Positions 15,996 through 52,266 are shown, counted from the first letter of the stretch. The stretch: DNA of 64,000 bases from an uncultured Bacilli bacterium (GCA_910586295.1 CAJUGE010000011.1:22798-86797); one strand, 5' to 3'. Notes: generated by a model from the sequence alone, not told the origin. A program made the numbers and translations.

Positions 15996-16040
15996 AATAA
16001 AATTCGCCTAACGTTACTATAATTAACTAGGTGAATTTTT

Positions 16041-16574: not shown

Positions 16575-16639
16575 AATTAGAAAATATTGACTTATAAGAT
16601 ATAAAAATATTATAGTATAAGAAAGGAAAGGTCGTTATT

Positions 16640-17890: not shown

Positions 17891-17911
17891 AATATTACGA
17901 GGATGATATTT

Positions 17912-19711: not shown

Positions 19712-20280
19712 TCTTCATCTCCTAACAAAATAACTTCATCTCCGTTTTTCAAATTGAAAGCATTAGCTTCATCAGTATCTAGATGTAATTCTAAATTATA
19801 ATTATCTTGTGACTTAACTATAATGTTATCTAAAATTCCACCTCTGTCTCCTAAAATTTTAACTCTTACTTTTTTTCCATCAAACATATTAAACTTTTTT
19901 AAATCACTGCTATTAACATGTAAATGTCTATTTGCGATAATACAAGAATTTTTAATAACTTTTTCTTTATCTAAGTATTTTAAAGTAACATCCACCGCAC
20001 CATTAAAATCTCTACTCATTCTTATTGGAGGATTAATCCCTAACTTATAAGAATCCGTTTTACTTATCTCCACTTGAGAATGTTTCCTAAGTGGCCCTAT
20101 TATTCTAACATTTTTTATTTCATTTTTCTCTGTCTTAATAGTAACGAGCAAATTAGAAGCAAATTCTCCATTTTGAGATAAATCCTTAAACTTAGTAAAC
20201 TCTATATTACCAAAAAAGAACTCATAATCTTCTTTACATAAATGAATATGCCTATTACTTACTCCAACTTTTATATTCAT
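19708..20280 (-). CDS. PduL-family phosphate acyltransferase-like protein
   Basis: Two repeats of the PduL motif (VGVSNRHIHL ... IANRHLHV); stop TGA overlaps the prfB ATG (ATGA). Confidence 0.6.
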   Translation of the reverse strand: MNIKVGVSNRHIHLCKEDYEFFFGNIEFTKFKDLSQNGEFASNLLVTIKTEKNEIKNVRIIGPLRKHSQVEISKTDSYKLGINPPIRMSRDFNGAVDVTLKYLDKEKVIKNSCIIANRHLHVNSSDLKKFNMFDGKKVRVKILGDRGGILDNIIVKSQDNYNLELHLDTDEANAFNLKNGDEVILLGDEE

Positions 20281-34351: not shown

Positions 34352-34380
34352 TATAAAATAATGAAAGAGGGAAAAATAAT

Positions 34381-34934
34381 ATGAAAAGTAACTATTTATT
34401 ATTACATGGAAGTTTTGGAAGTCCATTTGTTAACTGGTTTCATATTTGAGGAAAAAAATAGAAGAAAAAGGATTAGAAGTGTACTCTCCTGATTTTCCTA
34501 CAGGTGTTGGATATCAAACCTATGATAACTGGTCTAAACTTTTAAAAAGCTATGTAGAAGCAAATATCATTAATAACAACACAATTATATTTGCTCATTC
34601 CATAGCATCTATCTTTATTTGTAAATTTTTAGTGGAGAATAGAATAAGAGTAAAAAGATTAGTTCTTGTTTGTGGATTTAATAATTATTTTGGTATTGAT
34701 GAAGATTATGATACAGTTAATAAAAGTATGTATTTTGATAATCTTTTAGATATCGAAAACTATTGTGATGACATCATTTGTTTCTATTCTGATAATGATC
34801 CATATGTTAAATATGAAGCAGAAAAAGAATTTGCTAATACTATAACTAAAAATCAAATCATGATTCATAACGGAGGACATTTAAATTCTGAAAGTGGCTA
34901 TACAGAATTTGCGGATTTATTAAATTATTTATAG
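34381..34934 (+). pseudogene. YdeN/RBBP9-like alpha/beta serine hydrolase, frameshifted in a T3 run (34445-34447)
   Basis: MKSNYLLLHGSFGSPFVNWFHI* then the +2 frame continues LRKKIEEKGLEVYSPDFP...; one extra T restores a single 183-aa ORF. Confidence 0.6.
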
Positions 34935-35225
34935 TGCAATATTTATGAAACAGGTATTTAAAATCATAAGAATTTAGAAAATGAATTTATTAATTTTAAA
35001 GAGATATTGAAAGTTAATAAATAGCTTTTAAACTCTCTTTTCTTTTATATATAAACTTTCAAAGATTAGTTTAAATTATATATTTAGATTAAATGTGTAT
35101 ATTTAAGATATTTAATCTTACATAAAATAACCCTCACATAAGTATAAAAATATTAAGAATATGAAATATAATTTTAAGTGAAATAACTCATAAAAAAATA
35201 AAAACCACAAAAATGTACAAAATTA

Positions 35226-35254
35226 TTTACAAATATTTGCAGAAGTGTTATAAT
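35226..35254 (+). promoter_or_regulatory. Sigma-A-type promoter TTTACA-17-TATAAT
   Basis: Consensus-like hexamers with 17-bp spacer, 25 bp upstream of the start codon at 35280. Confidence 0.5.
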
Positions 35255-35279
35255 ATCAACTATTATTTAAGGGGGAATT

Positions 35280-36287
35280 ATGAAAAAAGAAGAATTAAAT
35301 GCACTAATTAGCATAAGCGAATCCATAACGGAAACATATAGAAGTATGGCTGAATTAGAGAAATCAAACAAAAAAGAAAGTGAAGAATATAAGTCACTAA
35401 TAAACTGCTTAAAATCAACAAAAGGCTTAGAAGAAAATATGTTATCAAATATTGATTTAAACAAAGAAACTATGGAATTTATAGAAAAAGAATTAAAATC
35501 TTTAGGTTATGTTGATCAAAATAACACTGCCAATACAATAATTCAAAACACTCAACATAAAGAAAATAATCTTCATCTTACAAGAATATTATTAAGATTA
35601 AAAAATAAAATGGCAAGAAATGCAAAATTGACACTCAGAAGTGAACTTTCTAAATTATTACCTGAAGAAGTTTTAGATAGTGAAAATTTTCTTGATGAAG
35701 AATCTATAAATAGTTATATTGGGCTAGTTGAAATAAGCACATCTTTTAGAAGAGATATTTCATTATTACTTTACAAACTACTAGAAGATGAGATTATAAA
35801 AGAAGGAAATATAGCTCTTAGCAACATTTTAATTGACTATAAATATTCACTAATAATATTAGATAGCAATTTAGAAAGAATTCTTATTAATTCAAAATTT
35901 GAAAGATTAGAACATCCATTTCTTGAATCAGAATTAATAGGTTCACTATTAAAAGTGCCAGAATGTTATTATAAACATCAAAAGTATGCTATTGCAAAAA
36001 TGATAAGTGAAAGAGAAATAGTAGCGCTACTTAAAACATATAGCCATGAATATGAATTTCCACCACAAAAAGGTGCAATTGTATTTAGAAACTTAATTCT
36101 AAGAAGCAGTATTCAATTATTAACACAAGAACAATTAACAAAAATGTTTAGAGAAACTATGGATGTTCTTAATAGTAAAGATTATGTCGAAAATTACTAT
36201 TCAAATAATAACATTGAGATAATAAAAAAATGTTTTGACTCATTTCAAAATCTAGAAGGTGTAAATCGCCTAACATTAAAAGGATAG
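35280..36287 (+). CDS. Hypothetical all-helical protein (335 aa)
   Basis: ORF with own promoter and GGGGGAATTATG RBS; no domain recognised. Confidence 0.55.
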   Translation: MKKEELNALISISESITETYRSMAELEKSNKKESEEYKSLINCLKSTKGLEENMLSNIDLNKETMEFIEKELKSLGYVDQNNTANTIIQNTQHKENNLHLTRILLRLKNKMARNAKLTLRSELSKLLPEEVLDSENFLDEESINSYIGLVEISTSFRRDISLLLYKLLEDEIIKEGNIALSNILIDYKYSLIILDSNLERILINSKFERLEHPFLESELIGSLLKVPECYYKHQKYAIAKMISEREIVALLKTYSHEYEFPPQKGAIVFRNLILRSSIQLLTQEQLTKMFRETMDVLNSKDYVENYYSNNNIEIIKKCFDSFQNLEGVNRLTLKG

Positions 36288-36288
36288 C

Positions 36289-37504: not shown

Positions 37505-37635
37505 GTTATTAGCATAGTTATGCTAATTTTTCATTTTATTTAACATTTTGAATTGTAACATACAAACACTTTTTTACAAAAAAACATAAAAGTATGATAA
37601 AATATAAAAAGAGAATAATACTAGGAGGAAAAAGA

Positions 37636-39285
37636 ATGAAAGAAAGCATAATCGTAGATATAACTAATCAAGGAAAAGTAATATTTAAAAGTGGAGGAAC
37701 AATAGAAGAATTAATTCAAAAAATAGATGGACCATCTACTATAATCGCTGCACTTATAGACAACGAAGTACAAGAGTTATCATATAGAATAAAGGATGAT
37801 ACAAACTTAACATTCATACACATAAATGAAAGAATGGGAGCAAAGATATATAGAAGTGGTCTTAAATTTTTATACATTGCAGCAATAAAAGAACTTTATG
37901 GAACTAATACTAATGTAGAATTGAAGCATTCACTAGATAAAGGTATTTACACTAAAATAGACAAAGAAATAGCAGAAAAAGATGTCGAAGATATTAAAGC
38001 AAAAATGAAAGAACTATCTAATAGAAACCTAAAAATTGAAAGACTTACGACAAATAGAAAAGAGGCAATTAAATACTTTAATGGAACAAAAGAACAGGAA
38101 AAAGTAGATCTATATAAACAAATGACTAGAGATGTTGTAACACTATATTCTTTATTAGATTATTATGAATATTTTTACAGTAAAATGCCTATAAACACAG
38201 GCATACTAAATAACTTTGATTTAACTCTTACAAAAGATGGAGGAATAATATTACAATACCCTAACCCACATGATGGAATAATTCCACCATACACTCACAT
38301 GGAAGACGTATTAAATGTATTTAAGTCTTATGGAAACTGGTCAACTAGACTAGGAGTAAACTATGTATCAGAAGTAAATAATGTTGTAATAAATGGGAAA
38401 ATTAAAGAATTTATTCAACTTAATGAAATAAGACAAAACGAAGATTTACAGACAATAGCCTATGAAATAAAAACTAAAATAAATGATTTAAAATTAATAC
38501 TAATTGCAGGACCTTCTAGTTCGGGCAAAACTACAACTTCAAAAAAGATATCATTATATTTAAAAAGTCTTGGAATAAACCCATTTGTAATTTCAACTGA
38601 TGATTACTTTAAAAATCGTGCAGAAACTCCAAAAAACGAAAAAGGAGAATACGAGTATGATATATTAGAAGCAATAGATGTTGACATGTTTAATACGCAT
38701 TTAACAAAGTTATTAAATGGAGAAGAAATAGTAATACCTACATATAACTTTCTAACAGGAGAAAAAGAATTTAAAAACCCTCCTATAACATTAAAAAACA
38801 GAGACATAATAATAATCGAGGGAATACATACATTAAATGAAGAATTAACAAAATCAATAGATAGAAAAAACAAATATAAAATATATATAAGTCCATTCAC
38901 ACCATTAGGTTTAGACAGACACAACCACATATCTACAGTTGATTTAAGACTTATAAGAAGACTAGTAAGAGACTATAGAACCAGAGGATATTCTGCAGAA
39001 GCAACACTTGCTGGTTGGCAAAATGTAAGAGTCTCAGAAGAAAAATACATATTCCCTTATCAAAAAGAAGCAGACAAAGTTTTAGATACAGCACTTATTT
39101 ACGAACTTGGAATATTAAAAACTTATGCAATCCCAATTTTATATTCAGTAAATTACAAAAGTAAATATTATTCAGAGGCATTAAGAATAATAAACTTCCT
39201 AGAATATTTCTTAAACATACCAGTAGACACACTACCTAACACAGCATTATTAAGAGAATTTGTAGGAAATGGATATTTTGAATAA
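37636..39285 (+). CDS. Long-form uridine kinase / phosphoribulokinase-family nucleoside kinase with N-terminal TGS-like domain
   Basis: Walker A LILIAGPSSSGKTTTSKK followed by the Asp-rich ISTDDYF block; TAGGAGGA RBS before 37636. Confidence 0.6.
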   Translation: MKESIIVDITNQGKVIFKSGGTIEELIQKIDGPSTIIAALIDNEVQELSYRIKDDTNLTFIHINERMGAKIYRSGLKFLYIAAIKELYGTNTNVELKHSLDKGIYTKIDKEIAEKDVEDIKAKMKELSNRNLKIERLTTNRKEAIKYFNGTKEQEKVDLYKQMTRDVVTLYSLLDYYEYFYSKMPINTGILNNFDLTLTKDGGIILQYPNPHDGIIPPYTHMEDVLNVFKSYGNWSTRLGVNYVSEVNNVVINGKIKEFIQLNEIRQNEDLQTIAYEIKTKINDLKLILIAGPSSSGKTTTSKKISLYLKSLGINPFVISTDDYFKNRAETPKNEKGEYEYDILEAIDVDMFNTHLTKLLNGEEIVIPTYNFLTGEKEFKNPPITLKNRDIIIIEGIHTLNEELTKSIDRKNKYKIYISPFTPLGLDRHNHISTVDLRLIRRLVRDYRTRGYSAEATLAGWQNVRVSEEKYIFPYQKEADKVLDTALIYELGILKTYAIPILYSVNYKSKYYSEALRIINFLEYFLNIPVDTLPNTALLREFVGNGYFE

Positions 39286-39294: not shown

Positions 39295-39762
39295 ATGTAT
39301 AAGGATTATATAAAATTTTTAATAGAAGCAAAACAACAAACATATGCAAATGAAAACATTGAAAAAGTAGAATCTTCAAGAAAAGGTTCAAAAGATTATG
39401 AATATACTAATGGAACATTTACTTATCACGATACATACTTTGGAGGAATAAAATTTATAGGGGAAGAAGTTATATATAGTGATTCTAAAATTCCTATTTG
39501 GGCAATGAATTATTATGGAGTAACCCTAGATGAAAACTTATCAGAAGAAACAATGGATATGGCATTAAGACCTGCTTTAATGAAAGTGGGAGAAGATGAA
39601 AAAGTTCTTCCAGTAAGAGGACCTAGTGAATTTATAAATGGAGAATATATCTATAAGTTTACATCAAATGGGAATATAGAAGATTTTGAAGGTATCGAAG
39701 AAATATATAAAAGCAAGAAATTAATATATAGATTAAAATGTCATGGAGGAATAATAAAATGA
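39295..39762 (+). CDS. Hypothetical protein (155 aa); resembles a domain-of-unknown-function family seen in Firmicutes
   Basis: Conserved-looking blocks FTYHDTYFGG / WAMNYYG; identification by recall only. Confidence 0.35.
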   Translation: MYKDYIKFLIEAKQQTYANENIEKVESSRKGSKDYEYTNGTFTYHDTYFGGIKFIGEEVIYSDSKIPIWAMNYYGVTLDENLSEETMDMALRPALMKVGEDEKVLPVRGPSEFINGEYIYKFTSNGNIEDFEGIEEIYKSKKLIYRLKCHGGIIK

Positions 39763-40769
39763 TTAAAGTAGCAATAAATGGTTTTGGAAGAATAGGAAGA
39801 TGTGCATTAAGACAAATAAGCGAAAGAGAGGACATGGAAGTAGTCGCAATAAATGATTTAACAGACTCTCTTACCCTAGCTTATTTATATAAATATGACT
39901 CAGTTCATAGAACTTTAGATTCAAAAGTTGGATACGAAGATGATAAAATAGTAGTAAATGGAAAAGAAATAAAAATATATTCAGAAAGTGATCCTAATAA
40001 TTTACCATGGCAAGAACTAGGAATAGATGTAGTTCTTGAATGTACAGGAGTATTTACAAGTAAAGAAAAAGCTAAAGCTCATATAAAAGCAGGAGCAAAA
40101 AAAGTTATCATAAGTGCACCAGCAAAAGATGATGCTAAAACTATAGTATTTGGTGTAAATGAAGAATTACTTTCAAATAAAGATAAAGTTATAAGCACTG
40201 CCTCTTGCACAACAAACTGCTTAGCACCAGTACTTGACATACTCCATAAAAACTATAAAGTAATAAGTGGCTTTATGACAACAGTACACGCTATTACTAA
40301 TGACCAAGAAACTTTAGATATTCCACACAAAAAAGGTATAGAATCTAGACGCGGACGAGCAGCAAGTCTAAACATAATTCCTACCTCTACAGGAGCAGCA
40401 TCACAAATTGGAAAAGTTATACCAGAACTAGATGGAAAACTAGACGGAATTGCTTATAGAGTTCCAGTTGGAGACGGAAGTATTGTTGATCTTACAGTTT
40501 TGGTAGAAGAAAGTACAACAGTAGACAAAGTAAATAGACTTATAAAATCTAATCAAAGCGACGTCCTAAAAATAGTAAATGTACCTCTAGTAAGTAGTGA
40601 TGTTATTGGAACAGAAACAGGAGCAATAGTAGATTCACTATTAACTAAAGTAATAAAACAAGATAAAAAAACATTAATTAAAATCGCAGCCTGGTATGAT
40701 AACGAATGGGGATACACTGCTCAAATGATAAGAACACTAGCACATTGGTGTAAAAAAAATAATCAGTAA
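39759..40769 (+). CDS. gap: Glyceraldehyde-3-phosphate dehydrogenase
   Basis: MIKVAINGFGRIGR NAD-binding N-terminus and active site ASCTTNCLAP; GGAGGA RBS. Confidence 0.95.
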   Translation: MIKVAINGFGRIGRCALRQISEREDMEVVAINDLTDSLTLAYLYKYDSVHRTLDSKVGYEDDKIVVNGKEIKIYSESDPNNLPWQELGIDVVLECTGVFTSKEKAKAHIKAGAKKVIISAPAKDDAKTIVFGVNEELLSNKDKVISTASCTTNCLAPVLDILHKNYKVISGFMTTVHAITNDQETLDIPHKKGIESRRGRAASLNIIPTSTGAASQIGKVIPELDGKLDGIAYRVPVGDGSIVDLTVLVEESTTVDKVNRLIKSNQSDVLKIVNVPLVSSDVIGTETGAIVDSLLTKVIKQDKKTLIKIAAWYDNEWGYTAQMIRTLAHWCKKNNQ

Positions 40770-40779
40770 ATACTACTGA

Positions 40780-42081
40780 CTATTTTTTTATTAAGAAAGC
40801 TGCATATAAAGGTATACTATATATATTGTTATCAAATCCGAAGTTTTTCATAGATAACCGTATAGAATATTTAGGGTTATATTTATTAATATATTCATTC
40901 AAACTTTTAGACTTTGTATTAATAGAAGACTTTACTTCAACTGGTATAATACCACCTTCTCTTTGTAATATAAAGTCAATCTCTGCCTCGTATTTACTTC
41001 TCCAAAAATATATACTAAAACCATTAGTAGTAAAAGTATTAGCAATATAATTCTCAGTAATCGCACCCTTAAATAAGAAATTACCATCTAACATAATATC
41101 AGAAAAATTAACATTAGCCAAATAATTAAGAAGACCAACATCACTTAAATATATTTTAAAATTGTCTTCTTCTTCATATATAGATAAAGGCATCTCTGGG
41201 ACCTTAATCTTCTTACATTTAACTATCATATTACTTGCTAACAACCAATCTAAAGGTAATTCATATTGTCTTTTATTAGAGTTTTTAGATACATTAGAAT
41301 ATTTAAACTTTTTATTATCATTTCCAAGTTGTTTAGGTATACTCTCATATATAGATTGTATCTTAATGCTCTCTTCAGCACTAATAACATACTTTCTCAT
41401 ATCTGCAATATAAGCAGTAATAATATTGCTATGTATGTCTCTATTAAAAGACATCAAATTTTGTTCTTTGTTAATGTAATCCTCTACAGCCTGTGGCATA
41501 CCACCTATACACAAATAAGATTTATAAATATCGAGGCACTTATTATGAAGACTATCTAACATTTTACTAGAATTACTAAAACACAAAGAAATTTCTTCTA
41601 ACAATTTTTCATTACCAGTAGCAAGCATAAATTCCTCAAAATCCATAGGATACAAATACTTAATAATGACTTTGCCTACAGGAAAAGAAGAATTAAATCT
41701 TCTTAACTTTACACCAAGTAAAGAACCAGCACATACAATATGATACTTTTCTTCCTCGCAAAAATATTTAAGTGCCATAATCGCACGTTCACTAACTTGT
41801 ATTTCATCAAAAAATATAACAGTATTCTGAACATCTATATTAATATTCTTACTTATTTCTATATGTTTAATTACATCAACAGGATTAACAGTCTCCTCAA
41901 AAATACTAGTTATACCTTCTTCTTTTTCTAAATTAATATAAACATAACTGTTAAACTCTTTTCTACAAAATTCATCTAGTATGTATGTTTTCCCAGTTTG
42001 TCTAGCACCAACAACCATTAAAGGAATAAAGGAACTATTATTATTCCAATCTTCTAAAACTCTACTAAACTTCCTATACAT
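40780..42081 (-). CDS. AAA+ ATPase (AAA_14 + DUF4143 family)
   Basis: Walker A GARQTGKT and Walker B IFFDEIQ; C-terminal DUF4143-like region. Confidence 0.75.
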   Translation of the reverse strand: MYRKFSRVLEDWNNNSSFIPLMVVGARQTGKTYILDEFCRKEFNSYVYINLEKEEGITSIFEETVNPVDVIKHIEISKNINIDVQNTVIFFDEIQVSERAIMALKYFCEEEKYHIVCAGSLLGVKLRRFNSSFPVGKVIIKYLYPMDFEEFMLATGNEKLLEEISLCFSNSSKMLDSLHNKCLDIYKSYLCIGGMPQAVEDYINKEQNLMSFNRDIHSNIITAYIADMRKYVISAEESIKIQSIYESIPKQLGNDNKKFKYSNVSKNSNKRQYELPLDWLLASNMIVKCKKIKVPEMPLSIYEEEDNFKIYLSDVGLLNYLANVNFSDIMLDGNFLFKGAITENYIANTFTTNGFSIYFWRSKYEAEIDFILQREGGIIPVEVKSSINTKSKSLNEYINKYNPKYSIRLSMKNFGFDNNIYSIPLYAAFLIKK

Positions 42082-42454
42082 ACTGTATCACCTATCACAA
42101 TTTTAACAAAAAAATTATTACATGTCAAGAAAATGCATTATATTGCATATTTTTCACACATAAAAATGTTATATATTACATATTTTTAGGAGATAAAATC
42201 GTTTTATAGTATTTAAGATAATATCTTACGCCAAAAAGTAACTCCAATTAGTTGAGAGGCTTTCATAACTATCTTTTCCTAAAGATAGTATTTTAGCAAT
42301 AAAAGTAAGAAATATTAAAATTAAATAATTATCTCTTAGAGGATTTAAGGATAAGAAAAGTAAAGTAAGAATAGAAAATGTAAAAAAATATAAAGAAGAA
42401 TAAAAAATAAATAACAATAAAAATAGAGAATCTCATTAATTCTCTAATTTAACC

Positions 42455-44485
42455 CTATCTAAATTTTCTCATAATTCTCAAAGTATTGATGATTGTAAGA
42501 AGCGTTACTCCAGTATCTGCAAAAACAGCAAGCCACATATTTGCAAGACCAAATACAGAGAAAGCAAGAATGATAATTTTAACTCCAATTGCAAATATTA
42601 AATTTTGTTTAATAATTTTCTTAGTATATTTAGAAATATTAAATGCAAGTGGTATTTTAGAAACATCATCATTCATTAATACAATATCACTAGCCTCAAT
42701 CGCAGCATCACTTCCAACACCTCCCATAGAGATGCCTATATCAGCACGCTTCAAAACAGGTGCATCATTAATACCATCCCCAACAAAAATACTTATTATA
42801 TCCTTACTTGAAATATCTTCATAGTTTTTATATTTATCTGTAGGAAGCATCTCATATTTAATAACGTCTATTCCTAACTTTTTACCAATATTAAGAGCTA
42901 CTTCTCTTTTATCTCCAGTAAACATATAAGTATTAATATTAAATTTATTTAAACTATCTATAGTCTCCTTAGCATTGTCTTTAATACCATCGTCTATAGA
43001 AATAGAAGCAATATGTTTTCCATCAATATTCAAATGTAACACAGTATCTTCATTACAATTACATAATGATTTATTTCCAATAGATATATTTTTACCATAT
43101 AAATTAAATGTAATACCTTTTCCTTCAATCTCTCTATAATTTTTAACATCTCTATTGTTAGGTACATTACTCTTTAATTTCATAATAGATTTAGCAATAG
43201 GATGATTAGAAAGTGACTCGCCTTTCATAAGAATATCTATAACTTCCTCTTTAGAATAATTATTTTCCATTACTTTAATATCAGTAACAGTAAAACTACC
43301 ATTCGTAAGTGTGCCAGTCTTATCAAAAATAATATTTTTAGCATTACTTAAATTATCCAAGAAATTACTTCCTTTAATTAAAATTCCTTTCTTACTAGCA
43401 ACACCAATACCTGTAAAATAAGATAAAGGTACGGATATAGCAATCGCACAAGGACAAGCAATAACTAAGAAAGTTAAAGCACGGTACACTGCATCACTTC
43501 TACCAACTTGAGTTAATATAGGCATAAAAATAATAATCATAATAGCAAGTATCACCACACAGGGAGTATACACTTTACTTATTTTAGAAATAGTAGTCTC
43601 AGTTTTAGTTTTCTTATCTGTAGCTTCTTCTAACATTTCAAGAATTTTATTAACTGTAGAATTCTCAAAAATTTCTAAAGCCTTAATTTGTATAACATCT
43701 CCCATATTTATGCTTCCAGATAATACTTTATCATTTTCTTTAACTAAAGCAAGTTCACTTTCCCCAGTCAAAAGAGAAGTATCAAGACTAGTATTTCCAT
43801 TAATTATAACCGCATCAACAGGAACTTTCTCTCCCTTTTTAACAACTAATATATCCCCTACTTCAATATCTTCAACTAACACACTCTGCTCTATATTATC
43901 GGTTAATTTATTAGCATAAGGTTCTTTAATATCAATTAAATCCTTAATAGACTTTCTAGAATTATTAACTGCCTTTTCTTCTAATATCTTTCCAATAGTA
44001 TATAAAGTTATAACCATCATACCTTCAAGCACTTCGCCAATAACCAAAGCTCCCACACAAGAAATAGTTATAAGTAAATTTTCATTAATTGTCCTACTCT
44101 TAAACAGTAACTTAATAGCATTCCAAGTAGTTCTATATAAAAGTAAACTATATGAAACTATATAAAATCCAATCTTCAAATATACAGGCATATCTACAAA
44201 ATAACCAATAAAACCAATTAGTAATGCTATTATCAAAATAGATAAAGAAAACTCTTTCTTCTTATTTACTTCTTCTTTAGAAATATATGTTTCGGGTTCT
44301 ATTCTTTTAATAATATTATTTATTTCTTTTATACTAACCTCCTTCATACTCTCATAAGAAAGTTTAGAAGTATTAAAATTAACACAAACGTTACTTAAAT
44401 CATTATGTTTATTTAAAGTTTCTTCAATTTTCCTAGCACAATTCGCACAATCTAAATTATTGATATTATATTTATATTTCTTCAT
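42455..44485 (-). CDS. cadA: Heavy-metal (Cd/Zn/Co-type) translocating P1B-type ATPase
   Basis: N-terminal HMA domain with CANCARKIE; CPC transduction motif (VIACPCAIAI); DKTGTLT phosphorylation site; GDGINDAP. Confidence 0.9.
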   Translation of the reverse strand: MKKYKYNINNLDCANCARKIEETLNKHNDLSNVCVNFNTSKLSYESMKEVSIKEINNIIKRIEPETYISKEEVNKKKEFSLSILIIALLIGFIGYFVDMPVYLKIGFYIVSYSLLLYRTTWNAIKLLFKSRTINENLLITISCVGALVIGEVLEGMMVITLYTIGKILEEKAVNNSRKSIKDLIDIKEPYANKLTDNIEQSVLVEDIEVGDILVVKKGEKVPVDAVIINGNTSLDTSLLTGESELALVKENDKVLSGSINMGDVIQIKALEIFENSTVNKILEMLEEATDKKTKTETTISKISKVYTPCVVILAIMIIIFMPILTQVGRSDAVYRALTFLVIACPCAIAISVPLSYFTGIGVASKKGILIKGSNFLDNLSNAKNIIFDKTGTLTNGSFTVTDIKVMENNYSKEEVIDILMKGESLSNHPIAKSIMKLKSNVPNNRDVKNYREIEGKGITFNLYGKNISIGNKSLCNCNEDTVLHLNIDGKHIASISIDDGIKDNAKETIDSLNKFNINTYMFTGDKREVALNIGKKLGIDVIKYEMLPTDKYKNYEDISSKDIISIFVGDGINDAPVLKRADIGISMGGVGSDAAIEASDIVLMNDDVSKIPLAFNISKYTKKIIKQNLIFAIGVKIIILAFSVFGLANMWLAVFADTGVTLLTIINTLRIMRKFR

Positions 44486-44858
44486 TCTCTTCTCCTCTCT
44501 CCATAACATGTCTAGTAGCGACTTCAAAAACCTCTTTAACATGTTCATCATCCAAAGAATAATAAACTTCTTTACCTTCTCTTCTACACTTAACTATTTT
44601 ATTAAGCCTTAAAGTACTAAGTTGATGAGATATAGAAGATTTAGTCATACCCAAAACATTCGCAATGTCACAAACACACATCTCACTATTATCTAATGCA
44701 AATAAAATTCTAATTCTAGTAGTATCTCCTAATATTCTAAAAAAATCACTTACCTCATCACTAATAACATCATCTGGCATATTTTCTTTAGCATTTAATA
44801 CTTTATCTTCGTGAATAATATTACAATCACAAAATTTATATATATCCTTAGTTCCCAT
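44472..44858 (-). CDS. cadC: ArsR/SmtB-family metal-responsive repressor (CadC-like)
   Basis: ELCVCD-type metal-binding helix (EMCVCDIA); N-terminal Cys pair FCDC; AAGGAG RBS; 14-nt overlap with cadA. Confidence 0.85.
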   Translation of the reverse strand: MGTKDIYKFCDCNIIHEDKVLNAKENMPDDVISDEVSDFFRILGDTTRIRILFALDNSEMCVCDIANVLGMTKSSISHQLSTLRLNKIVKCRREGKEVYYSLDDEHVKEVFEVATRHVMERGEENEEI

Positions 44859-44876
44859 AAAAACTCCTTCCATAAG

Positions 44877-44930
44877 TTGAATAATTGCTCAACTATTTAT
44901 ATTATAGTTGAATATATGTTCAATTGTCAA
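44877..44930 (-). promoter_or_regulatory. cadC promoter (TTGACA-18-TATAAT on the minus strand) with two ArsR-type imperfect palindromic operator candidates
   Basis: The RC shows consensus -35/-10 hexamers; palindromes TTGAATAATTGCTCAA (44877-44892) and TTGAATATATGTTCAA (44908-44923); the latter lies between -35 and -10. Confidence 0.55.
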
Positions 44931-45031
44931 TAGTATTCGCCCAAAATTTTTAAGTAAATAAAATGTTAAATTTTTTATATATTAATCTCTTTCTCTATAT
45001 ATAATAGTATAATAGAGATAAGGTGATAAAT

Positions 45032-46177
45032 ATGAAAACAATTAAAGACTTAAACGTAGAAAATAAAAAAGTAATACTTAGGGTTGACTACAATGTTCCT
45101 ATTCAAGACGGAAAAGTCATAGATAATAATAGAATAAAACAAAGTTTAGAAACTATTAATTATTTAAAAGAGCATAATGCTAAGATAATATTGATGTCCC
45201 ACTTAGGAAAAATTAAGTCAGAAGAAGATAAAGAAAAGAACACTCTACTCCCTGTAAAAGAAGAATTAGAAAGTCTTTTAAATGAAAAAATAAAGTTTTC
45301 TCATGAATTAAAAGGCAAAGAATTAGAAGATTTAGTTAATGGTTTAAACCCCAAAGAAATCTTATTATTAGAAAATACTAGATACATGGACTATCCAAAT
45401 AAATTAGAAAGTAATTGTGATAAAGAATTATCATCATACTGGGCTTCTTTAGGAGATGTATTTGTTTTAGATGCCTTTGGAAGTGCCCATCGTGCTCATG
45501 CATCAACATATGGTATAAGTGAGTATCTATTGCATGCTGTTGGATTTCTTATAGAAAAAGAATTAAAAGAATTAGACATCATTAAAAATGAAACAAAAAC
45601 AATAATATTGGGTGGAGCAAAAGTAAGTGATAAAATAGGAGTAATAAAAAATTTATTACCTACTTCAAACAAAATACTAATTGGTGGTGCTATGTGTGGA
45701 ACTTTCCTAAAAAGCCAAAACATTAATGTAGGAAATACCTTTGTTGAAGAAGAAAAAATAGAAGAAGTGAAAAAGTTGATAGACCAAGATAAAATAATTT
45801 TACCAATTGATGTTGTAACTGAAAACGGTATCAAAGAAATAAATAATATATCTAATGATGAGAGTATATTCGATATAGGTCCAAAAACAATAGAATTATT
45901 TACTTCTCACTTAGAAAATGAAAAATTAGTTTTGATTAATGGTACTATGGGATTATATGAAAATCCAAAATATGAAAACGGAACAAAAGAACTATTTAAT
46001 TATTTATTATCAAAGAAAGTAAAAACAGTAGTATGTGGAGGAGACACAGGAAACGCTAGTAAAAAATATAATTTTACTCCCTACTATCTATCTACAGGTG
46101 GAGGTGCATCTCTAGAATATCTTGAAGGAAAAGAACTACCAACATTAAAAATTATGGAGGATAAAAATGAACAATAA
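45032..46177 (+). CDS. pgk: Phosphoglycerate kinase
   Basis: N-terminus KTIKDLNVENKKVILRVDYNVP; 384 aa. Confidence 0.95.
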   Translation: MKTIKDLNVENKKVILRVDYNVPIQDGKVIDNNRIKQSLETINYLKEHNAKIILMSHLGKIKSEEDKEKNTLLPVKEELESLLNEKIKFSHELKGKELEDLVNGLNPKEILLLENTRYMDYPNKLESNCDKELSSYWASLGDVFVLDAFGSAHRAHASTYGISEYLLHAVGFLIEKELKELDIIKNETKTIILGGAKVSDKIGVIKNLLPTSNKILIGGAMCGTFLKSQNINVGNTFVEEEKIEEVKKLIDQDKIILPIDVVTENGIKEINNISNDESIFDIGPKTIELFTSHLENEKLVLINGTMGLYENPKYENGTKELFNYLLSKKVKTVVCGGDTGNASKKYNFTPYYLSTGGGASLEYLEGKELPTLKIMEDKNEQ

Positions 46178-46796
46178 AATAAAAGAAACAATTAATTATT
46201 ATAAATTATGTACAAAATTAAAAGACACTATTAGAAAAGGTCCAATTATATGGAATGCAAAAAGAGAAAGAATAGAAAGCGTAGCAGAACATATTTATGG
46301 AGTGCAAATGCTAGCAATATCTATCTATTACCAGTTTGAATATAAACTAAATCTAATGAAAATTATTTATATGTTAGCAATTCACGAATTAGAAGAAATA
46401 GAAATTGGAGACTTAGCATTCTTCGAAACCACAAGAGAAGAAAAACTAATTAAAGGTAAAAAAGCAACAGATTATATACTAAAAGATTTTCTTGGAAAAG
46501 ATGAAATATCATCATTGCTTGATGAATACAATGAGAGAAGTACTGAAGAAGCAAAGTTTGCTTATCATTGTGATAAATTAGAATGTGATATTCAAATGAA
46601 GTTGTATGACCAAGAGGGATGCTTTGATTTAAATGATCAACCTAATAATCCTATTATAAATAATCCGAGTGTAAAAAAAGTTTTAGACAGTGAAAAAAAT
46701 ATTTCTAATGCATGGATTGAATTTGATAGAGATAAATATAAAGACGATAAAAATTTCTTAAATATAATTAATTATTTAAAAGAAAATAAAATATAA
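46167..46796 (+). CDS. HD-domain phosphohydrolase (YfbR/HD_3-like 5'-nucleotidase family; HE in place of HD)
   Basis: ESVAEHIYGVQMLA ... LAIHELEEIEIGD pattern of the HD_3 family. Confidence 0.55.
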   Translation: MNNKIKETINYYKLCTKLKDTIRKGPIIWNAKRERIESVAEHIYGVQMLAISIYYQFEYKLNLMKIIYMLAIHELEEIEIGDLAFFETTREEKLIKGKKATDYILKDFLGKDEISSLLDEYNERSTEEAKFAYHCDKLECDIQMKLYDQEGCFDLNDQPNNPIINNPSVKKVLDSEKNISNAWIEFDRDKYKDDKNFLNIINYLKENKI

Positions 46797-46809
46797 AAAT
46801 GGAGAATTT

Positions 46810-47505
46810 ATGAAAACAATAATACTTAATCATAAAAGTTATCTTTCATATGAAGAACTACAAAATTATAAAAACGTATTAGAAACTCAAGCTATAGAAA
46901 ATATAAATTTAGTTTTGATGCCTACTCTAGCCTATTTATCAGAATTTAAGAGTTCTAAAATACAGATAGGTGCACAAAATTTTTATAGCTACAATTTTGG
47001 CTCATATACTGGAGAAATATCGCTAGAAACTTTAAAAAGTTTAAACGTAAGTTACACCTTAGTGGGACATCCAGAAAGATTAATGTTAAAACTTGATTCT
47101 TATCAAGAAGTAAAAGACAAATTTTTTAGAAGTATAAATCTAGGTTTTAAAACTATTCTTTGCCTAGGACATGATGAAAATGAAAAAATATTAAAAAAAG
47201 AATTAAAGTTTTTCTTTAATGGTATAGAAGAAAGTGTATTAAAAAACTTAATAATTGCATTCGAGCCAGCATCCAAAATAGAAGGAGAAACAATAAACTT
47301 AAAACAAATAAAATATGTAAATAACTTTATAAAAGAATATATGACAAAGCATTTTGAAATAAACGTCCCTTTTATATATGGAGGTTCAGTCAATAAAAAT
47401 AATATTAAAGAAATATTAGAAATAACAGATGGAGTCATACTAGGAAGAAATAGTACAAACATTAACGAAATGATAGAAATAATTAATTTAATAAAAGGAG
47501 TCTAA
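46810..47505 (+). CDS. tpiA: Triosephosphate isomerase (divergent)
   Basis: GAQN, VGHPER (His), AFEP (Glu), YGGSV blocks present, but the NWKMN and AIGTG motifs are strongly diverged. Confidence 0.7.
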   Translation: MKTIILNHKSYLSYEELQNYKNVLETQAIENINLVLMPTLAYLSEFKSSKIQIGAQNFYSYNFGSYTGEISLETLKSLNVSYTLVGHPERLMLKLDSYQEVKDKFFRSINLGFKTILCLGHDENEKILKKELKFFFNGIEESVLKNLIIAFEPASKIEGETINLKQIKYVNNFIKEYMTKHFEINVPFIYGGSVNKNNIKEILEITDGVILGRNSTNINEMIEIINLIKGV

Positions 47506-48498
47506 ATGGAAGATACAAGTTTTATAGATTTAACAAAAGAAGAAAATTTAAAAAGAATGAATATTAATTCTGAATTAATTATTCCATTTAAAAATGTTAT
47601 GTACAATCTTCAAGAAATTTTCAACCGTGATGGATATACAACAAAAATAAATTATAAAGAGTTTTTTGAACATGCAGCTTTAGGAGAAGAAGAATATGAT
47701 AAAAACAAAATACTTAATTCAAAAAAGTTCAAAGAATATATTGAAAAAGTAAATCGTTTAAGAAGTTATGGCAATCTAGGAAATATTGACATAGAAGAAG
47801 GATACCTAATGTTTTTAAGCAAACAAGGTATATTAACCATATCTATTCTTCCAGTATCAAAATCAAAAGAAATTAATTATAAAGTTTGGCAAAACAAAAT
47901 ATCAATAGATGAGACTTATTTAAATAGTCCGGATTTAGAATCGCTCCTAGCCCATGAATTTATTCATTTTATAACTGAGTTTGTATATGGAGATTTAGTA
48001 CCAGTTTCAACACCTTACATGCAATTTCATATCGAATGTCTTACCGAACTATTAACACACGAAGCATATCCAAATGCTAATGGCTACAATATTTTAGGCA
48101 GATTAATACAATTTAGCAGGGACGTATTGCAGATAAAAGATTTTACATTTTTTTTAAAAAGAGAAATGAATCCAAAATATACAGAAGAATGGAACATATT
48201 TTTTAAAAAATCAAATGACTTCTTTTTAAAAAACAATAATAAATATACTGGATATTCAACTATTTGTGATGTGGACAAAGAAGATATTCCAGGTATTATA
48301 GATATTCAAAGAACACTTATTATCATATTGATAAATGGAATAGACTATAGTCGCATAGAAAACATACAATATATTAAAGAAAAAATCAAAGAAGTTCCAT
48401 ATTTATTTTTAGATAGAGAATATATAACAGAATATATAAGTTTTCTAGATAGTAGAATAGAAGAATTAAACTCAACTTTAGAAACTAGAAAATTATAA
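47506..48498 (+). CDS. Hypothetical protein with HExxH motif (putative zinc metallopeptidase-like)
   Basis: LLAHEFIHFITEF contains HEFIH; AAAGGAG RBS overlapping the tpiA stop. Confidence 0.5.
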   Translation: MEDTSFIDLTKEENLKRMNINSELIIPFKNVMYNLQEIFNRDGYTTKINYKEFFEHAALGEEEYDKNKILNSKKFKEYIEKVNRLRSYGNLGNIDIEEGYLMFLSKQGILTISILPVSKSKEINYKVWQNKISIDETYLNSPDLESLLAHEFIHFITEFVYGDLVPVSTPYMQFHIECLTELLTHEAYPNANGYNILGRLIQFSRDVLQIKDFTFFLKREMNPKYTEEWNIFFKKSNDFFLKNNNKYTGYSTICDVDKEDIPGIIDIQRTLIIILINGIDYSRIENIQYIKEKIKEVPYLFLDREYITEYISFLDSRIEELNSTLETRKL

Positions 48499-48583
48499 TG
48501 TATGGTGTTTATCTTAAAAATAGTTTCACTTATACTTCTTTTTAAGGCAAAATAATATCATTGACTACGCCTTTATTTGGGAA

Positions 48584-49511
48584 ATGAATAGAATTGTGAA
48601 TAATTTAAAAGAAAAATTAAGAGTAGAAAATTTAATATATGATATAAGAGGAAAACAGGTTATGCTAGATAGTGACCTAGTGGTTTTATATGTATGTAAA
48701 AATGGAACCAAAGAAATAAATCAAGCTGTAAAAAATAATATAAAGAAGTCCCCAAAAGATTTAGTTGGAAATTAACAGATGAAGAATGTAAAAGTTTTTT
48801 AGTCAAAAAATTTGACAAAAAAATAGAAACTAGAGGAGGTAAATACAAAAATCCTAGAGTTTTTACAGAACAGGGAATAGCAATGTTAACAACAATTATA
48901 AAAACAAAAATAGCAACCGAAGTTAGCATAAAAATTATGGACGCTTTTGTACAAATGAGACCTTTATAAAAAGTAATATCTTATTAAAACATACTATAAA
49001 TATATCCAATAAAATAGAAAAGATAGATAAAAAGTTATTAGAACATGACAAAAAATTTGAAATATTGTTTTCTAGTTTTAAGAAGAAAGAACAAAAAAAT
49101 TAGTATACTTAAATGAACAAGTTTTTGACGCCTACATCGGAATAATAAATATTTTGAAAGAAGCGGAAAAAGAGATAGTCATAATAGATGGATATGCAGA
49201 CTTTAATGAATCGGAAATAATTTCTAAACTACAAGTAAACGTAACACTAATTATTAAAACTAAATCAAAACTATTTAAAGAAGAAATAAAAAAATATAAT
49301 CACAATATAATCATTTAACTGTATTAAAAAATGACAACTTCCATGATAGATACTTTCTAATAGATAATAAAAATCTTTATCATTGTGGTACCAGTTTAAA
49401 CCATGCAGGAAATAAACCATTAATCTCAACAAACTCGAAGAAAAAGAAATTATAAATATTCTAAGAGAAAAAATAAATAAAACCATAAAAAATTCCACAA
49501 AAATTTATTAA
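48584..49511 (+). pseudogene. ORF6N-domain (phage antirepressor/KilA-N-like) gene broken by five -1 frameshifts, each in a homopolymer
   Basis: IRGKQVMLDSDLVVLY, FTEQGIAMLTT, IMDAFVQMRP, KLLEHDKKFE, QVFDAYIGI and DRYFLIDNKNLYHCGTSL match the ORF6N family but lie in different frames; each junction is restored by adding one base to a T3, T3, A7, T3 or A5 run. Confidence 0.6.
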
Positions 49512-49522
49512 TAAAAGTCACT

Positions 49523-49549
49523 ATCGACATTTAACGACAAAAATCGACA
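49523..49549 (-). promoter_or_regulatory. Two 0A-box-like heptamers (TGTCGAT on the minus strand, 20 bp apart) upstream of spo0A
   Basis: Plus-strand ATCGACA at 49523-49529 and 49543-49549; RC TGTCGAT matches 6/7 of the Spo0A box TGTCGAA. Confidence 0.35.
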
Positions 49550-49560
49550 ATTTGAGACAA

Positions 49561-49590
49561 AACTAGAGCATAAAAACTCTAGTTTATTTT
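49561..49590 (+). terminator. Hairpin terminator (aactagag/ctctagtt) + T-run upstream of spo0A
   Basis: 8-bp perfect inverted repeat followed by TTTATTTT. Confidence 0.5.
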
Positions 49591-49636
49591 ATAATACATG
49601 TAATATAATAAAAAAGTAAAAATAAGGAGAAAAAAG

Positions 49637-50401
49637 ATGAAAAAAAGAATTATGGTAGTAGACGATAACAAAGCAATGGTAGAAATGCTTAAAGAATTTT
49701 TTAGCAGTAATTCAAATATTGAAGTAGTTGACACAGCATATGATGGAGAAGAAGCCTGGGAAAAAATTAAAGAAAATTCCAAAAATATTGATGCAGTATT
49801 GCTTGACTTAATCATGCCCAAAAAAGATGGTCTGTATGTTCTAGATAATATCAAAGAATCAAAAATAGACATAAATGTTATAGTTGTAACTAGTTATAAT
49901 GAGCAAGAAACCATAAGAAACATAAGTGAATATGGAGTAAAATACTTTGTATTAAAACCTTTCGACTTAAAAGAATTAGAAAAAAGAATAATGAGTATAA
50001 CATCAAGTAAAAATAAAACTAACAAAATACTAGATTTATCAAACAGTAACATTCAAATTTCAGTGACAAAAATACTTCATGAATTAGGAATCCCATCACA
50101 CATAAAAGGATACACTTACATAAGAGATGCTATAAGTATGGTATATGATAACCCTTCCTTAATCGGAGGAATAACAAAAGAATTATATCCAAGCATTGGA
50201 GAAAAATATGAAACAAGTGTAACAAGAGTTGAACGTGCGATTAGACATGCTATAGAAGTAAGTTGGAACCGCGGAGACTGGAATCTAATGGAAGAAATAT
50301 TCGGGCATTCTGTAGACATAGATAAAGCAAAACCAACAAACTCAGAATTTATAGTTACAATAGCCGACAAATTAAGACTTGAAATGCTTAAAGTTCGCTA
50401 A
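49637..50401 (+). CDS. spo0A: Stage 0 sporulation protein A (response regulator)
   Basis: Receiver domain (DD...D...K); C-terminal Spo0A-specific domain ITKELYPSIGEKYETSVTRVERAIRHAIEVSWNRG ... KAKPTNSEFIVTIADKLRLE. Confidence 0.9.
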   Translation: MKKRIMVVDDNKAMVEMLKEFFSSNSNIEVVDTAYDGEEAWEKIKENSKNIDAVLLDLIMPKKDGLYVLDNIKESKIDINVIVVTSYNEQETIRNISEYGVKYFVLKPFDLKELEKRIMSITSSKNKTNKILDLSNSNIQISVTKILHELGIPSHIKGYTYIRDAISMVYDNPSLIGGITKELYPSIGEKYETSVTRVERAIRHAIEVSWNRGDWNLMEEIFGHSVDIDKAKPTNSEFIVTIADKLRLEMLKVR

Positions 50402-50452
50402 TACTTTTAATTATAACAATAATGTGCTAAAATAATACTAGGTGAAGCAAAT

Positions 50453-51964
50453 ATGAAAAAAGTGATATTACTAGTTTTAGATGGTTTTGGTTTAAACAGC
50501 AGTGATTATGGAAATGCAGTCAAACTTGCAAAAACTCCAGTTTTAGACAAACTTACAACAGTATTTCCATGCTCAGAACTAGAAGCAAGTGGCACTGAAG
50601 TGGGCTTGCCAAAAGGTCAAATGGGAAACAGTGAAGTTGGTCACATGACTATAGGAAGTGGTCGTATAACTAACCAACCACTAACTCACATAAACGAACA
50701 AATAAAAACCAAAGCATTTTTTAGTAACCAAACTCTACTAGATTTAATGAACTATGTCAACGAAAAAGGTAGCACACTTCATTTAATTGGACTACTTTCA
50801 AACGGAAGCGTTCATTCGAGTGCTAATCACTTTTATGCTGCCCTTGCAATGGCAAAACTATGCAAAGTAAAAAGAGTTGCATTCCATTTTATAACTGATG
50901 GTAGAGATACAAGTCCAACAAGTGGAGTCACATTTGTAAAAGATTTCATGGAACGTGCAAGAAAATTAAACCTAGGAGAACTTGCAACAATAAGTGGAAG
51001 ATACTATGCTATGGACAGAGACAATAGATGGGAAAGAATAAAAAAAGCATATGATGCTATTGTGTATGGAATGGGAAACGAATTTAGAGAATATGAACAA
51101 TGCTTCAAAGAACATTATAAACGAGAAATCACAGATGAATTTATAAATCCTAGTGTAATCACAAAAGGTAAAGAAATAAAAGATGGAGACGCAGTGTTAT
51201 TTATTAACTTTAGACCAGAAAGAATGAAAGAATTAATAGATGCGCTTACTACTGAAAACTTTAAAATGTTCCAAACAAAACATTTTGAAAATCTTCGCCT
51301 TGCTTCAATCTTTAATATACACGAGAACGTTGAATATGCTTTTGACACAGAAAAACCTACTAATACATTTGGAGAATACATAGATGGACTTGATTTCACT
51401 CAAGCAAGAATAGCAGAAACAGAAAAATATGCTCATGTAACATACTTCTTTGATGGAATGAAAGACTTAAACAGTACAAAGATTAATAAAATATTAATAC
51501 CTAGTCCTCAAGTTCCCACATATGATATGAAGCCAGAAATGAGTGTAGGAGAAGTAACAGAAGCAGTATTAAAAACATTAGACAATGACTATGACTTTAT
51601 ATTGGTTAACTTTGCAAATCCAGACATGGTAGGACACACAGGAAACTTGCAAGCAACAATTGACGCTATTGAAATATGTGATTTCTGTTTAGGAAAAATC
51701 TTTGAAAAAGCTAGAGAACACTTCTATGAACTAATAATAACTGCTGACCATGGAAATGCAGAAAAAATGTTAACAAAAGATGGAGAACCAGTAACAAGCC
51801 ACACAACAAGTAAAGTTCCGTTTATACTTTGCAATGAAGAATATAACTTAAAAAGCGAAGGCTCTCTAAGAGATATAATACCAACTATAATAGATATATA
51901 TGAAATTAAAAAACCTGACAAAATGACAGGAGAAAGTTTATTAATTAAACCAGAGCAACTATAA
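50453..51964 (+). CDS. gpmI: 2,3-bisphosphoglycerate-independent phosphoglycerate mutase
   Basis: VLLVLDGFGL N-terminus; 503 aa; alkaline-phosphatase-like C-terminal motifs TADHGN. Confidence 0.95.
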   Translation: MKKVILLVLDGFGLNSSDYGNAVKLAKTPVLDKLTTVFPCSELEASGTEVGLPKGQMGNSEVGHMTIGSGRITNQPLTHINEQIKTKAFFSNQTLLDLMNYVNEKGSTLHLIGLLSNGSVHSSANHFYAALAMAKLCKVKRVAFHFITDGRDTSPTSGVTFVKDFMERARKLNLGELATISGRYYAMDRDNRWERIKKAYDAIVYGMGNEFREYEQCFKEHYKREITDEFINPSVITKGKEIKDGDAVLFINFRPERMKELIDALTTENFKMFQTKHFENLRLASIFNIHENVEYAFDTEKPTNTFGEYIDGLDFTQARIAETEKYAHVTYFFDGMKDLNSTKINKILIPSPQVPTYDMKPEMSVGEVTEAVLKTLDNDYDFILVNFANPDMVGHTGNLQATIDAIEICDFCLGKIFEKAREHFYELIITADHGNAEKMLTKDGEPVTSHTTSKVPFILCNEEYNLKSEGSLRDIIPTIIDIYEIKKPDKMTGESLLIKPEQL

Positions 51965-52266
51965 TAATTTTAGTTGCTTTTTATACATATTTTTCCAAAA
52001 AGTGCTTTGAAAAAATGCAAAGATATTAAAATAAATAATAACAAGATTATATTTTTAATTATTTATATGAGCATATTTTTAGTAGACGAAAGTGAATTCT
52101 ATTAATAATTTAATTTAAAGTTATGAACACTCAAAATTTTCATAGCTTTTTCTATTGTGTATAAATTAGAAGTTATCAACATTTTTTGTAAACTTAATAA
52201 AGAAAATAATCAAACAAATAGATTTCAAATATAATTAGTGATATGATAAATCAAAAGGAGTACATT

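Follow-up and report, generated by a model that had tools for sequence, protein, structure and literature searches.

The glycolytic gene cluster gap-pgk-tpiA-spo0A-gpmI lies within a 64,000-nucleotide stretch of DNA from an uncultured Bacilli bacterium (GCA_910586295.1, CAJUGE010000011.1:22798-86797; hereafter "the window", in whose coordinates all positions are given). Comparison with related genomes makes it likely that the cluster joins an old backbone, which has spo0A inside it and the enolase gene eno outside it, with lineage-specific cargo genes at its junctions and a remodelled triosephosphate isomerase (TpiA). Overall, little here goes beyond common genome plasticity, apart from two mildly unusual details. 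The non-canonical lid of the triosephosphate isomerase (TIM) and the conserved tpiA-spo0A-gpmI linkage are the most notable parts; the cluster is otherwise a variant of known systems.

An earlier note, made from the sequence alone, had suggested that a conserved operon was repeatedly interrupted by mobile or accessory DNA. Genes in the window were called from a listing of open reading frames (ORFs) together with Pfam and NCBIfam scans, which recovered every gene the note had named at its place (Table 1). The separation of gap from pgk, put there at about 4.2 kb, measured 4.26 kb and is filled by three antisense genes, an AAA/DUF4143 ATPase and a cadC-cadA pair. Likewise, eno does not follow gpmI; two ABC exporter genes stand there instead.

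An ancestral backbone with variable junctions

We placed the window's proteins by tblastn on 45 related loci, comprising 33 species-level genomes and same-species contigs. Wherever the loci covered the genes, a PRK-domain gene, gap, pgk, tpiA, spo0A and gpmI followed one another in this order on one strand. spo0A came after tpiA in all 33 loci that covered both, and gpmI came after spo0A in 31. In the most distant locus (L044), gap and gpmI had gone from the neighbourhood and pgk-tpiA-spo0A was kept. Across these relatives, TpiA identity to the window's protein fell as low as 32%. The enolase signature motif, searched in six frames, was found neither in the window nor within 10 kb in any of the 45 loci, which does not imply that it is absent genome-wide. 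Because both features are common to the loci of all relatives, the position of spo0A within the row and the exclusion of eno from the cluster are, by this synteny, ancestral to the clade. The earlier note had listed spo0A among the inserted genes and read the absence of eno as a sign of insertion. Neither claim survives: synteny rules out spo0A as an accessory insertion, and no relative has eno close by.

The clade backbone would comprise whiA, clpP (antisense), the PRK-domain gene, gap, pgk, tpiA, spo0A and gpmI and then, after a few kb, the S10 ribosomal operon. The PRK/uridine-kinase-domain protein (549-563 amino acids; 37594-39285 in the window) is found directly before gap in every clade genome. 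This backbone resembles the Bacillus subtilis operon (cggR-gapA-pgk-tpiA-pgm-eno) in the order and strand of gap, pgk, tpiA and gpmI, and in having whiA and clpP nearby; B. subtilis likewise has a boundary between transcription units at gap|pgk. It differs in lacking cggR, in whose place the PRK-domain gene precedes gap, in lacking eno, and in carrying spo0A between tpiA and gpmI throughout the clade. In the window species, accessory genes on the antisense and the same strand additionally split the row into at least three units.

The junctions were compared across non-redundant genomes, window included (35 genomes for pgk|tpiA, for example). PRK|gap spans 12-27 bp in 24 of 27 genomes and is larger in three; a DUF5680 gene fills it in the window and in L013. 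For gap|pgk no typical value can be given: the shortest spacer, in L015, measures 79-88 bp (according to which gap start is taken) and the longest 4387 bp, and 27 of 30 genomes have this slot occupied. pgk|tpiA measures -10 to 105 bp in 33 of 35 genomes, the two occupied cases being the window species and L014, both with an HD_3 gene. tpiA|spo0A is 98-201 bp long in 27 of 33 genomes and larger, and occupied, in six; for spo0A|gpmI the corresponding values are 48-104 bp (26 of 31) and five genomes. The distance from gpmI to rpsJ varies from 274 to 9184 bp among relatives, in which ftsE-ftsX-pcsB-whiA and rpsJ-rplC are never interrupted. The window species carries extra DNA in all variable junctions but spo0A|gpmI.

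Judged at the junctions of this cluster, gap|pgk is a recurrent gene-gain hotspot in the clade. Gene gain would be tolerated at transcription-unit junctions, mainly at gap|pgk, then at gpmI|rpsJ, whiA|clpP, tpiA|spo0A and spo0A|gpmI, and the window lineage would have filled nearly all of the tolerant ones. The synteny comparison proposed with the earlier note thus turned up relatives without the full gene order and with the corresponding empty sites, such as gap|pgk in L015 or pgk|tpiA at 2-12 bp. Repeated insertion into a conserved operon therefore holds for the AAA/DUF4143 gene, cadC-cadA, HD_3, a protein with an HExxH motif, ORF6N and DUF5680, and fails for spo0A and the missing eno.

Further variation was seen at these and neighbouring junctions. 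whiA|clpP (34352-36288) spans 1.9 kb in the window, with two unannotated ORFs (162 and 335 amino acids), and the spacer is 5-50 bp long in 10 of the 16 relatives; PADLOC gave no match to the 335-amino-acid protein. In seven species (L007, L009, L017, L019, L020, L023 and L028), gap|pgk holds a same-strand ORF of 175-198 amino acids with no Pfam, PADLOC or PHROG match, which could be a subclade-specific operon member. Among more distant species, L039, L040, L041 and L045 have a conserved protein of 537-575 amino acids, with no family match, between spo0A and gpmI.

Across species, the contents of the slots fell into 37 unrelated sequence clusters, most of them singletons. The nameable cargo is mostly associated with defence or mobile DNA (PDC-S01, ORF6N/PDC-S05, KilA-N/PDC-S22, AbiEi, RelB), and further types include SLT, GT4+GDPD and unknown families. 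In the gap|pgk slot, too, defence candidates (PDC-S01, PDC-S05, PDC-S22, AbiEi and RelB) are frequent cargo across species. The PADLOC PDC families are unvalidated candidates predicted from gene neighbourhoods (PMC12988326). Within the window species, the cargo is shared with different relatives: AAA/DUF4143 and HD_3 with L014 only, cadC-cadA with L013 and L014 only, and ORF6N and DUF5680 with L013 only, while the HExxH protein is confined to the window species. Ratios of nonsynonymous to synonymous substitution rates (dN/dS) of the cargo are 0.06-0.19 between species separated by a synonymous divergence (dS) of about 1, for example 0.16 for DUF5680 (against L013), 0.16 for AAA/DUF4143 and 0.06 for HD_3. 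Such low ratios at this divergence, together with sharing by three species, mean that the cargo has long been inherited and maintained. On these substitution patterns the insertions are old and maintained, with the exception of the decayed ORF6N gene.

The AAA/DUF4143 ATPase matches PADLOC PDC-S01 over its full length (PDLC04786, E=5.5e-149, residues 1-432) and has the same two Pfam domains as that family, an AAA ATPase and a DUF4143 PD-(D/E)XK-like domain; the defence role of the family is itself a prediction from gene neighbourhoods (PMC12988326). PDC-S01 genes were seen in five loci, and between them they use three slots and both strands. The homologues of L014, L022, L026 and L038 lie in other slots and strands than the window gene, and homologues in differing slots or strands are only 32-38% identical. 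At 57375-58301 the window has another PDC-S01 gene (AAA_14/DUF4143), which lacks its N-terminal part (it covers profile positions 102-409 of 412) and is flanked by two DUF6624 paralogues (56417-56989 and 58330-58899) that have a 66-nucleotide repeat in common.

The cadA product, a CadA-type P1B-2 ATPase, carries HMA CxxC (CANC) and CPC motifs in translation and adjoins an ArsR/SmtB regulator; by these motifs the two genes are a predicted CadC/CadA-type metal efflux pair. The ORF6N gene, which the earlier note had called decayed and antirepressor-like, proved by tblastn to be a pseudogene. Its intact 308-amino-acid orthologue in the same slot of L013 (PF10543, 1.6e-30; PDC-S05, 9.7e-91) aligns to 48593-49505 in six pieces, in three frames and at 47-87% identity, which requires at least five frameshifts. 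The 330-amino-acid HExxH protein has no Pfam match and only 8 homologues in 5.8 billion proteins. It shows an invariant HEFIHF followed downstream by E..TE, and is best regarded as the product of an orphan accessory gene, possibly a gluzincin-type peptidase. A homologue in another Bacilli metagenome-assembled genome (MAG) occupies another variable position, ahead of rpsO.

Fixed core-gene junctions with cargo that varies between species, rich in defence-associated single genes and parts of toxin-antitoxin systems, are also found at known integration and defence hotspots. Unlike these, the present junctions belong to a housekeeping cluster for glycolysis in a reduced genome, hold mostly one gene per slot and lack mobile-element hallmarks, and most of the defence matches are unvalidated PADLOC candidates (PMC12988326). 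Even core glycolytic genes close to the replication origin, in a genome that is itself reduced, can thus act as a set of gene-gain hotspots.

No integrase, recombinase or transposase was found among the inserted genes, and searches for flanking direct or inverted repeats at the insertions returned only AT-rich chance matches. GC content is 0.25-0.28 throughout. Codon-usage z-scores of the cargo (-1.8 to +2.3) fall within the spread of the other genes, their low values following the minus strand, and the flips in GC skew mirror gene strand only. The earlier note had proposed GC skew and k-mer composition as a check; GC, GC skew and codon usage gave no island-like signal and look native despite the insertions shown by synteny. 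Since the skew flips reflect only gene strand, composition can neither detect nor date these insertions. Used alone, the composition check would have been a false negative: inserted genes need not look foreign in composition, and only comparison with relatives told inserted from ancestral parts. Variable presence among relatives is the single feature of a mobile island that the cargo displays. With no integrase, attachment-site (att) repeat or foreign composition remaining, the genes were probably gained by recombination through conserved flanking genes and not by a self-mobile element.

A derived triosephosphate isomerase

The atypical TpiA motifs reported in the earlier note (NHKSY and AFEPASKIEGE) are exact, and so is its claim that the catalytic Lys, His and Glu are kept. 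In alignments with solved TIMs, N7, K9, H87 and E152 fall on the N-x-K, GHSER and YEP motifs; none of the four varies in a set of 18 sequences, they are nearly invariant in 113, and across these 113 clade sequences E89, P153 (in E152-P153) and YGGS are likewise invariant or nearly so. The structure prediction proposed with the note gave a confident (beta/alpha)8 TIM barrel with the catalytic residues in register. Built on 18 homologues, this AlphaFold2 (AF2) model has a predicted local distance difference test score (pLDDT) of 89.9 and a predicted template-modelling score (pTM) of 0.89, and Foldseek matched it to TIM structures at E=1e-20 and a template-modelling (TM) score of 0.89 (range 0.83-0.89 to canonical TIMs). 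In sequence, the protein is 24-30% identical to solved TIMs and is the least conserved of the cluster in 25 of 26 genomes. Measured against its counterparts in the two nearest species, its dN/dS is 0.05-0.09, close to the value for pgk. A pseudogene is ruled out by dN/dS and by the conservation of the motifs.

The differences from other TIMs follow a pattern within the clade. The second glycine of loop 8 is replaced by Lys or Arg in 113 of 113 sequences. The lid Trp is kept, in a YEPSWAIGSG-like motif, in 24 sequences and lost in the other 89; the Trp-less lid, (F/Y)EPx(S/N)KI(E/D), is one residue shorter and itself conserved. Loss of the Trp co-occurs with a Glu-to-His/Lys change in the IGE motif and a Ser-to-Pro change in GHSER. 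In TIM, the hinge of the lid has a hydrogen-bond switch made up of Trp168, Glu129 and Tyr164, and Ser96Pro is a known suppressor change; a structure of the S96P form was among the fold-search matches of the window protein. Compared with canonical TIMs (chicken, yeast and Francisella 5ujw), the window clade shares the (beta/alpha)8 fold, the catalytic Asn, Lys, His and Glu, the loop-3 TGE and the loop-7 YGGS, and differs in the shorter lid and in GHPER for GHSER, GH(D) for IGE and G(R/K) for the loop-8 GG. The clade form has lost the Trp168/Glu129 switch and one or more glycines of the lid, and among close relatives of the window Tyr164 as well; a conserved lysine (EPxSKI) has been gained.

Taken together, the change in TpiA looks like coordinated remodelling of the lid and not like decay. 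By position, the protein is the tpiA orthologue; it is most likely an active isomerase and represents a clade-specific, fast-evolving form with remodelled phosphate-gripper loops. The divergence noted earlier is therefore real in its motifs; as a by-product of insertion it does not stand, the form being derived and clade-wide. That the clade enzyme is a fully active TIM with a different phosphate gripper is a tentative prediction, to which we give somewhat less than an even chance. If true, it would offer a natural alternative to a lid generally taken to be near-universal. A TIM that selection maintains with a non-canonical lid could also serve as a test case for the part of loop 6 in catalysis.

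spo0A and the transcription units

Phased TTCGACA boxes lie upstream of spo0A clade-wide, with 10- or 20-bp spacing and 19 exact copies in 4,080 nucleotides against 0.02 expected, an enrichment whose significance is overstated by the non-independence of the related loci. The Bacillus 0A box is TGTCGAA, and the repeats read as its reverse complement. In some relatives the boxes begin inside the 3' end of tpiA. Insertions between tpiA and spo0A always lie upstream of the boxes and so spare them, which marks spo0A as a self-contained unit. A terminator-like hairpin sits between the boxes and the -10-like boxes of spo0A (Table 1), and its AAACTAGA arm is kept in relatives. By these repeats, spo0A is probably autoregulated through the 0A boxes. 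The arrangement recalls the autoregulated spo0A of Bacillus and Clostridium (spoIVB-spo0A) in its full-length Spo0A and in the several TGTCGAA-type boxes just upstream; it differs in its neighbours, tpiA and gpmI in place of spoIVB, and in the 10- or 20-bp phasing of the boxes.

gpmI starts about 51-55 nucleotides after spo0A. No terminator was predicted between the two, and the fold of the intergenic stretch was not significant. Co-transcription of spo0A and gpmI is therefore possible, and gpmI might even be read with spo0A from the 0A-box promoter, a suggestion that we rank as less likely than the alternative phosphate gripper of TpiA. If true, the 3-phosphoglycerate step would be linked to the sporulation regulator. 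Also notable is that spo0A, with its own phased 0A boxes, keeps this place between tpiA and gpmI throughout a clade of uncultured gut Bacilli whose sporulation is so far only predicted. Current understanding would change only with experimental confirmation of the enzyme or of the regulatory link. Our literature search on the spo0A-tpiA-gpmI neighbourhood and on enolase in RF39 returned nothing relevant.

The antisense cargo (AAA/DUF4143 and cadC-cadA) would have come with its own promoters and would cut gap off from pgk. pgk, parted from gap by antisense genes, would then need a new promoter; two TATAAT-like boxes lie 15-35 nucleotides upstream of it. The promoter of cadC-cadA matches the sigma-70 consensus perfectly (Table 1). 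Short inverted repeats overlap it (AGTTGA..TCAACT and TTGAA-TATATG-TTCAA, 44874-44960), and are plausible ArsR/SmtB operator sites. The same-strand cargo (DUF5680, HD_3 and the HExxH protein) is probably co-transcribed with the glycolytic genes, because stop and start codons overlap or abut: the DUF5680 gene and the gap start, placed by gene callers at MIKVAING, overlap by 4 nucleotides, and the HD_3 gene shares 11 nucleotides with the 3' end of pgk.

Alternative explanations and genomic setting

We weighed the old backbone with later cargo against other explanations of the locus. If the whole arrangement were ancestral, relatives with short gaps would have lost genes during genome reduction, an idea that suits the strongly reduced genomes of RF39 (PMC6784871), the native composition of the cargo, its purifying selection and the presence of cadCA in three species. 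Loss alone, however, demands an ancestor that held all the cargo genes together, and the cargo is unrelated from one species to the next: the many, mostly singleton clusters, an HD_3 gene in two of 35 genomes, an HExxH protein in one species, and PDC-S01 homologues of low identity in different slots and strands leave this explanation very improbable. Integration of one or more classical mobile elements into the operon, whether a genomic island, an integrative element or a prophage remnant, draws on the ORF6N and KilA-N proteins, which match PHROGs of phage anti-repressors and regulators, on the defence-candidate genes, and on cadCA metal resistance, which is often carried on mobile DNA. It is nevertheless quite unlikely, given the lack of integrase, transposase or recombinase, tRNA, flanking repeats and atypical GC or codon usage, and given single genes or gene pairs in separate slots where one block would be expected. 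A metagenomic mis-assembly or chimera might be suspected with an uncultured source, especially as every related record found is a MAG or a metagenomic scaffold. The same gene order was recovered in six contigs from six samples and two assembly pipelines (L001-L006; 96-100% protein identity), so the arrangement is not an assembly artefact; composition is uniform as well, and the chance of such an error is close to nil.

The divergent tpiA might instead be decaying or have taken on another function, the real isomerase being encoded elsewhere or the step being dispensable. Its low rank in conservation within the cluster fits this, as do a lid without Trp168 and without at least one of Gly171 and Gly173, the Gly-Arg/Lys of loop 8 in place of Gly-Gly, and scores below all NCBIfam TIM equivalog cut-offs. 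The pgk-like dN/dS argues against it, speaking for a function though not for which one, together with the catalytic residues and YGGS kept across the 113 sequences, the conservation of the derived lid motif itself, the confident TIM-barrel model and the constant position after pgk; we regard decay or a change of function as unlikely. A remodelled TpiA on an old backbone with later cargo remains our preferred account, and several points count against it. No NCBIfam TIM equivalog cut-off is reached (NF000728, 123.3 against 255; TIGR00419, 82.8 against 130.6), and the canonical loop-6 lid (P-V-W-A-I-G-T-G) is absent from the window protein, which has PASKI-EGE there and G-R in loop 8. In single slots, gain is separated from loss by parsimony only, and the 0A-box count is inflated as described above. 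The promoter scan as a whole returned 98 sites against a shuffled mean of 112, so only perfect and near-perfect matches carry weight. Finally, the transcription units, the co-transcription of cargo and the binding of Spo0A are read from sequence only.

Apart from Clostridium sp. CAG:628 (L026), every relative that a search with TpiA recovered is uncultured and labelled "Bacilli" or "Tenericutes", or is a mislabelled MAG. The window species most likely belongs to the uncultured, low-GC, reduced-genome Bacilli of the order RF39. We take family UBA660 to lie within this GTDB order. The genus CAG-628, to which Clostridium sp. CAG:628 belongs, has been assigned to UBA660 (bioRxiv 10.1101/2024.11.15.623857), and spo0A has been reported in RF39 genomes, with spore formation predicted (PMC10868615). 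In the window, spoIIR (Spore_II_R) at about 15417-15995 supports a sporulation-capable lineage.

The window lies near the chromosomal origin: rnpA, yidC, jag, mnmE, mnmG, rsmG and parB are found at its start (1-20000), and dnaA-dnaN stands a few kb from that start, just upstream in a matching contig (L046). The S10 ribosomal operon is at the window's end. The region from 39.3 to 52 kb is very AT-rich, with a GC content of about 0.27. A tRNA scan of the 64-kb window found none, an Rfam scan returned nothing, and a context look-up for the protein encoded at 24945-26441 gave no record. The features of the cluster are listed in Table 1.

Table 1. Genes and sequence signals of the glycolytic cluster, with positions in the window (L001, L013: related loci)
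Feature	Position	Strand	Evidence and remarks
DUF5680 gene	39295-39762	+	Pfam DUF5680 on identical gene in L001; between PRK-domain gene and gap
gap, type I glyceraldehyde-3-phosphate dehydrogenase	39759-40769	+	TIGR01534 415.9 bits (cut-off 367); Gp_dh_N and Gp_dh_C
AAA_14+DUF4143 ATPase	40780-42081	-	Pfam; PADLOC PDC-S01 match
Promoter-like site TTGACA-17-TAAAAT with TG	42100-42128	-	Upstream of AAA/DUF4143; 11/12 consensus, consensus match only
cadA-like heavy-metal P1B-type ATPase	42455-44485	-	TIGR01512 475.9 (cut-off 313.5); TIGR01525 517.9; HMA, E1-E2 and HAD domains
cadC-like ArsR/SmtB metalloregulator	44472-44873	-	NF033788 95.5 (cut-off 55); HTH_5 domain; CVC motif in translation
Perfect sigma-70 consensus promoter TTGACA-18-TATAAT	44901-44930	-	For cadC-cadA; 12/12 match
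pgk, phosphoglycerate kinase	45032-46177	+	PF00162 396.7 bits
HD_3 phosphohydrolase gene	46167-46796	+	PF13023 89.3 bits; between pgk and tpiA
tpiA, divergent triosephosphate isomerase	46810-47505	+	PF00121 149.4 bits (cut-off 20.1; residues 3-226)
330-amino-acid orphan HExxH protein	47506-48498	+	Directly abuts tpiA stop codon
ORF6N-domain pseudogene (PDC-S05 type)	48584-49505	+	tblastn with intact L013 orthologue
Four 0A-box-like repeats, 10-bp phase	49523-49559	+	ATCGACA, AACGACA, ATCGACA, TGAGACA; upstream of spo0A
Hairpin with 9-bp stem	49560-49585	+	Terminator-like; -10.4 kcal/mol, z = -3.2; between 0A boxes and -10-like boxes of spo0A
spo0A, master response regulator of sporulation	49637-50401	+	TIGR02875 273.8 (cut-off 200); Response_reg and Spo0A_C domains
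gpmI, cofactor-independent phosphoglycerate mutase	50453-51964	+	TIGR01307 608.8 (cut-off 330.65)
Two tandem ABC exporter genes	52243-55730	+	ABC_membrane and ABC_tran on identical genes in L001

The two ABC exporter genes form the first part of a 9.2-kb variable stretch ahead of the S10 ribosomal operon. Their ATPase halves share at least 300 nucleotides at 89% DNA identity (53164-53463 and 54897-55196) and their membrane halves differ, a likeness that suggests gene conversion or a recent partial duplication.

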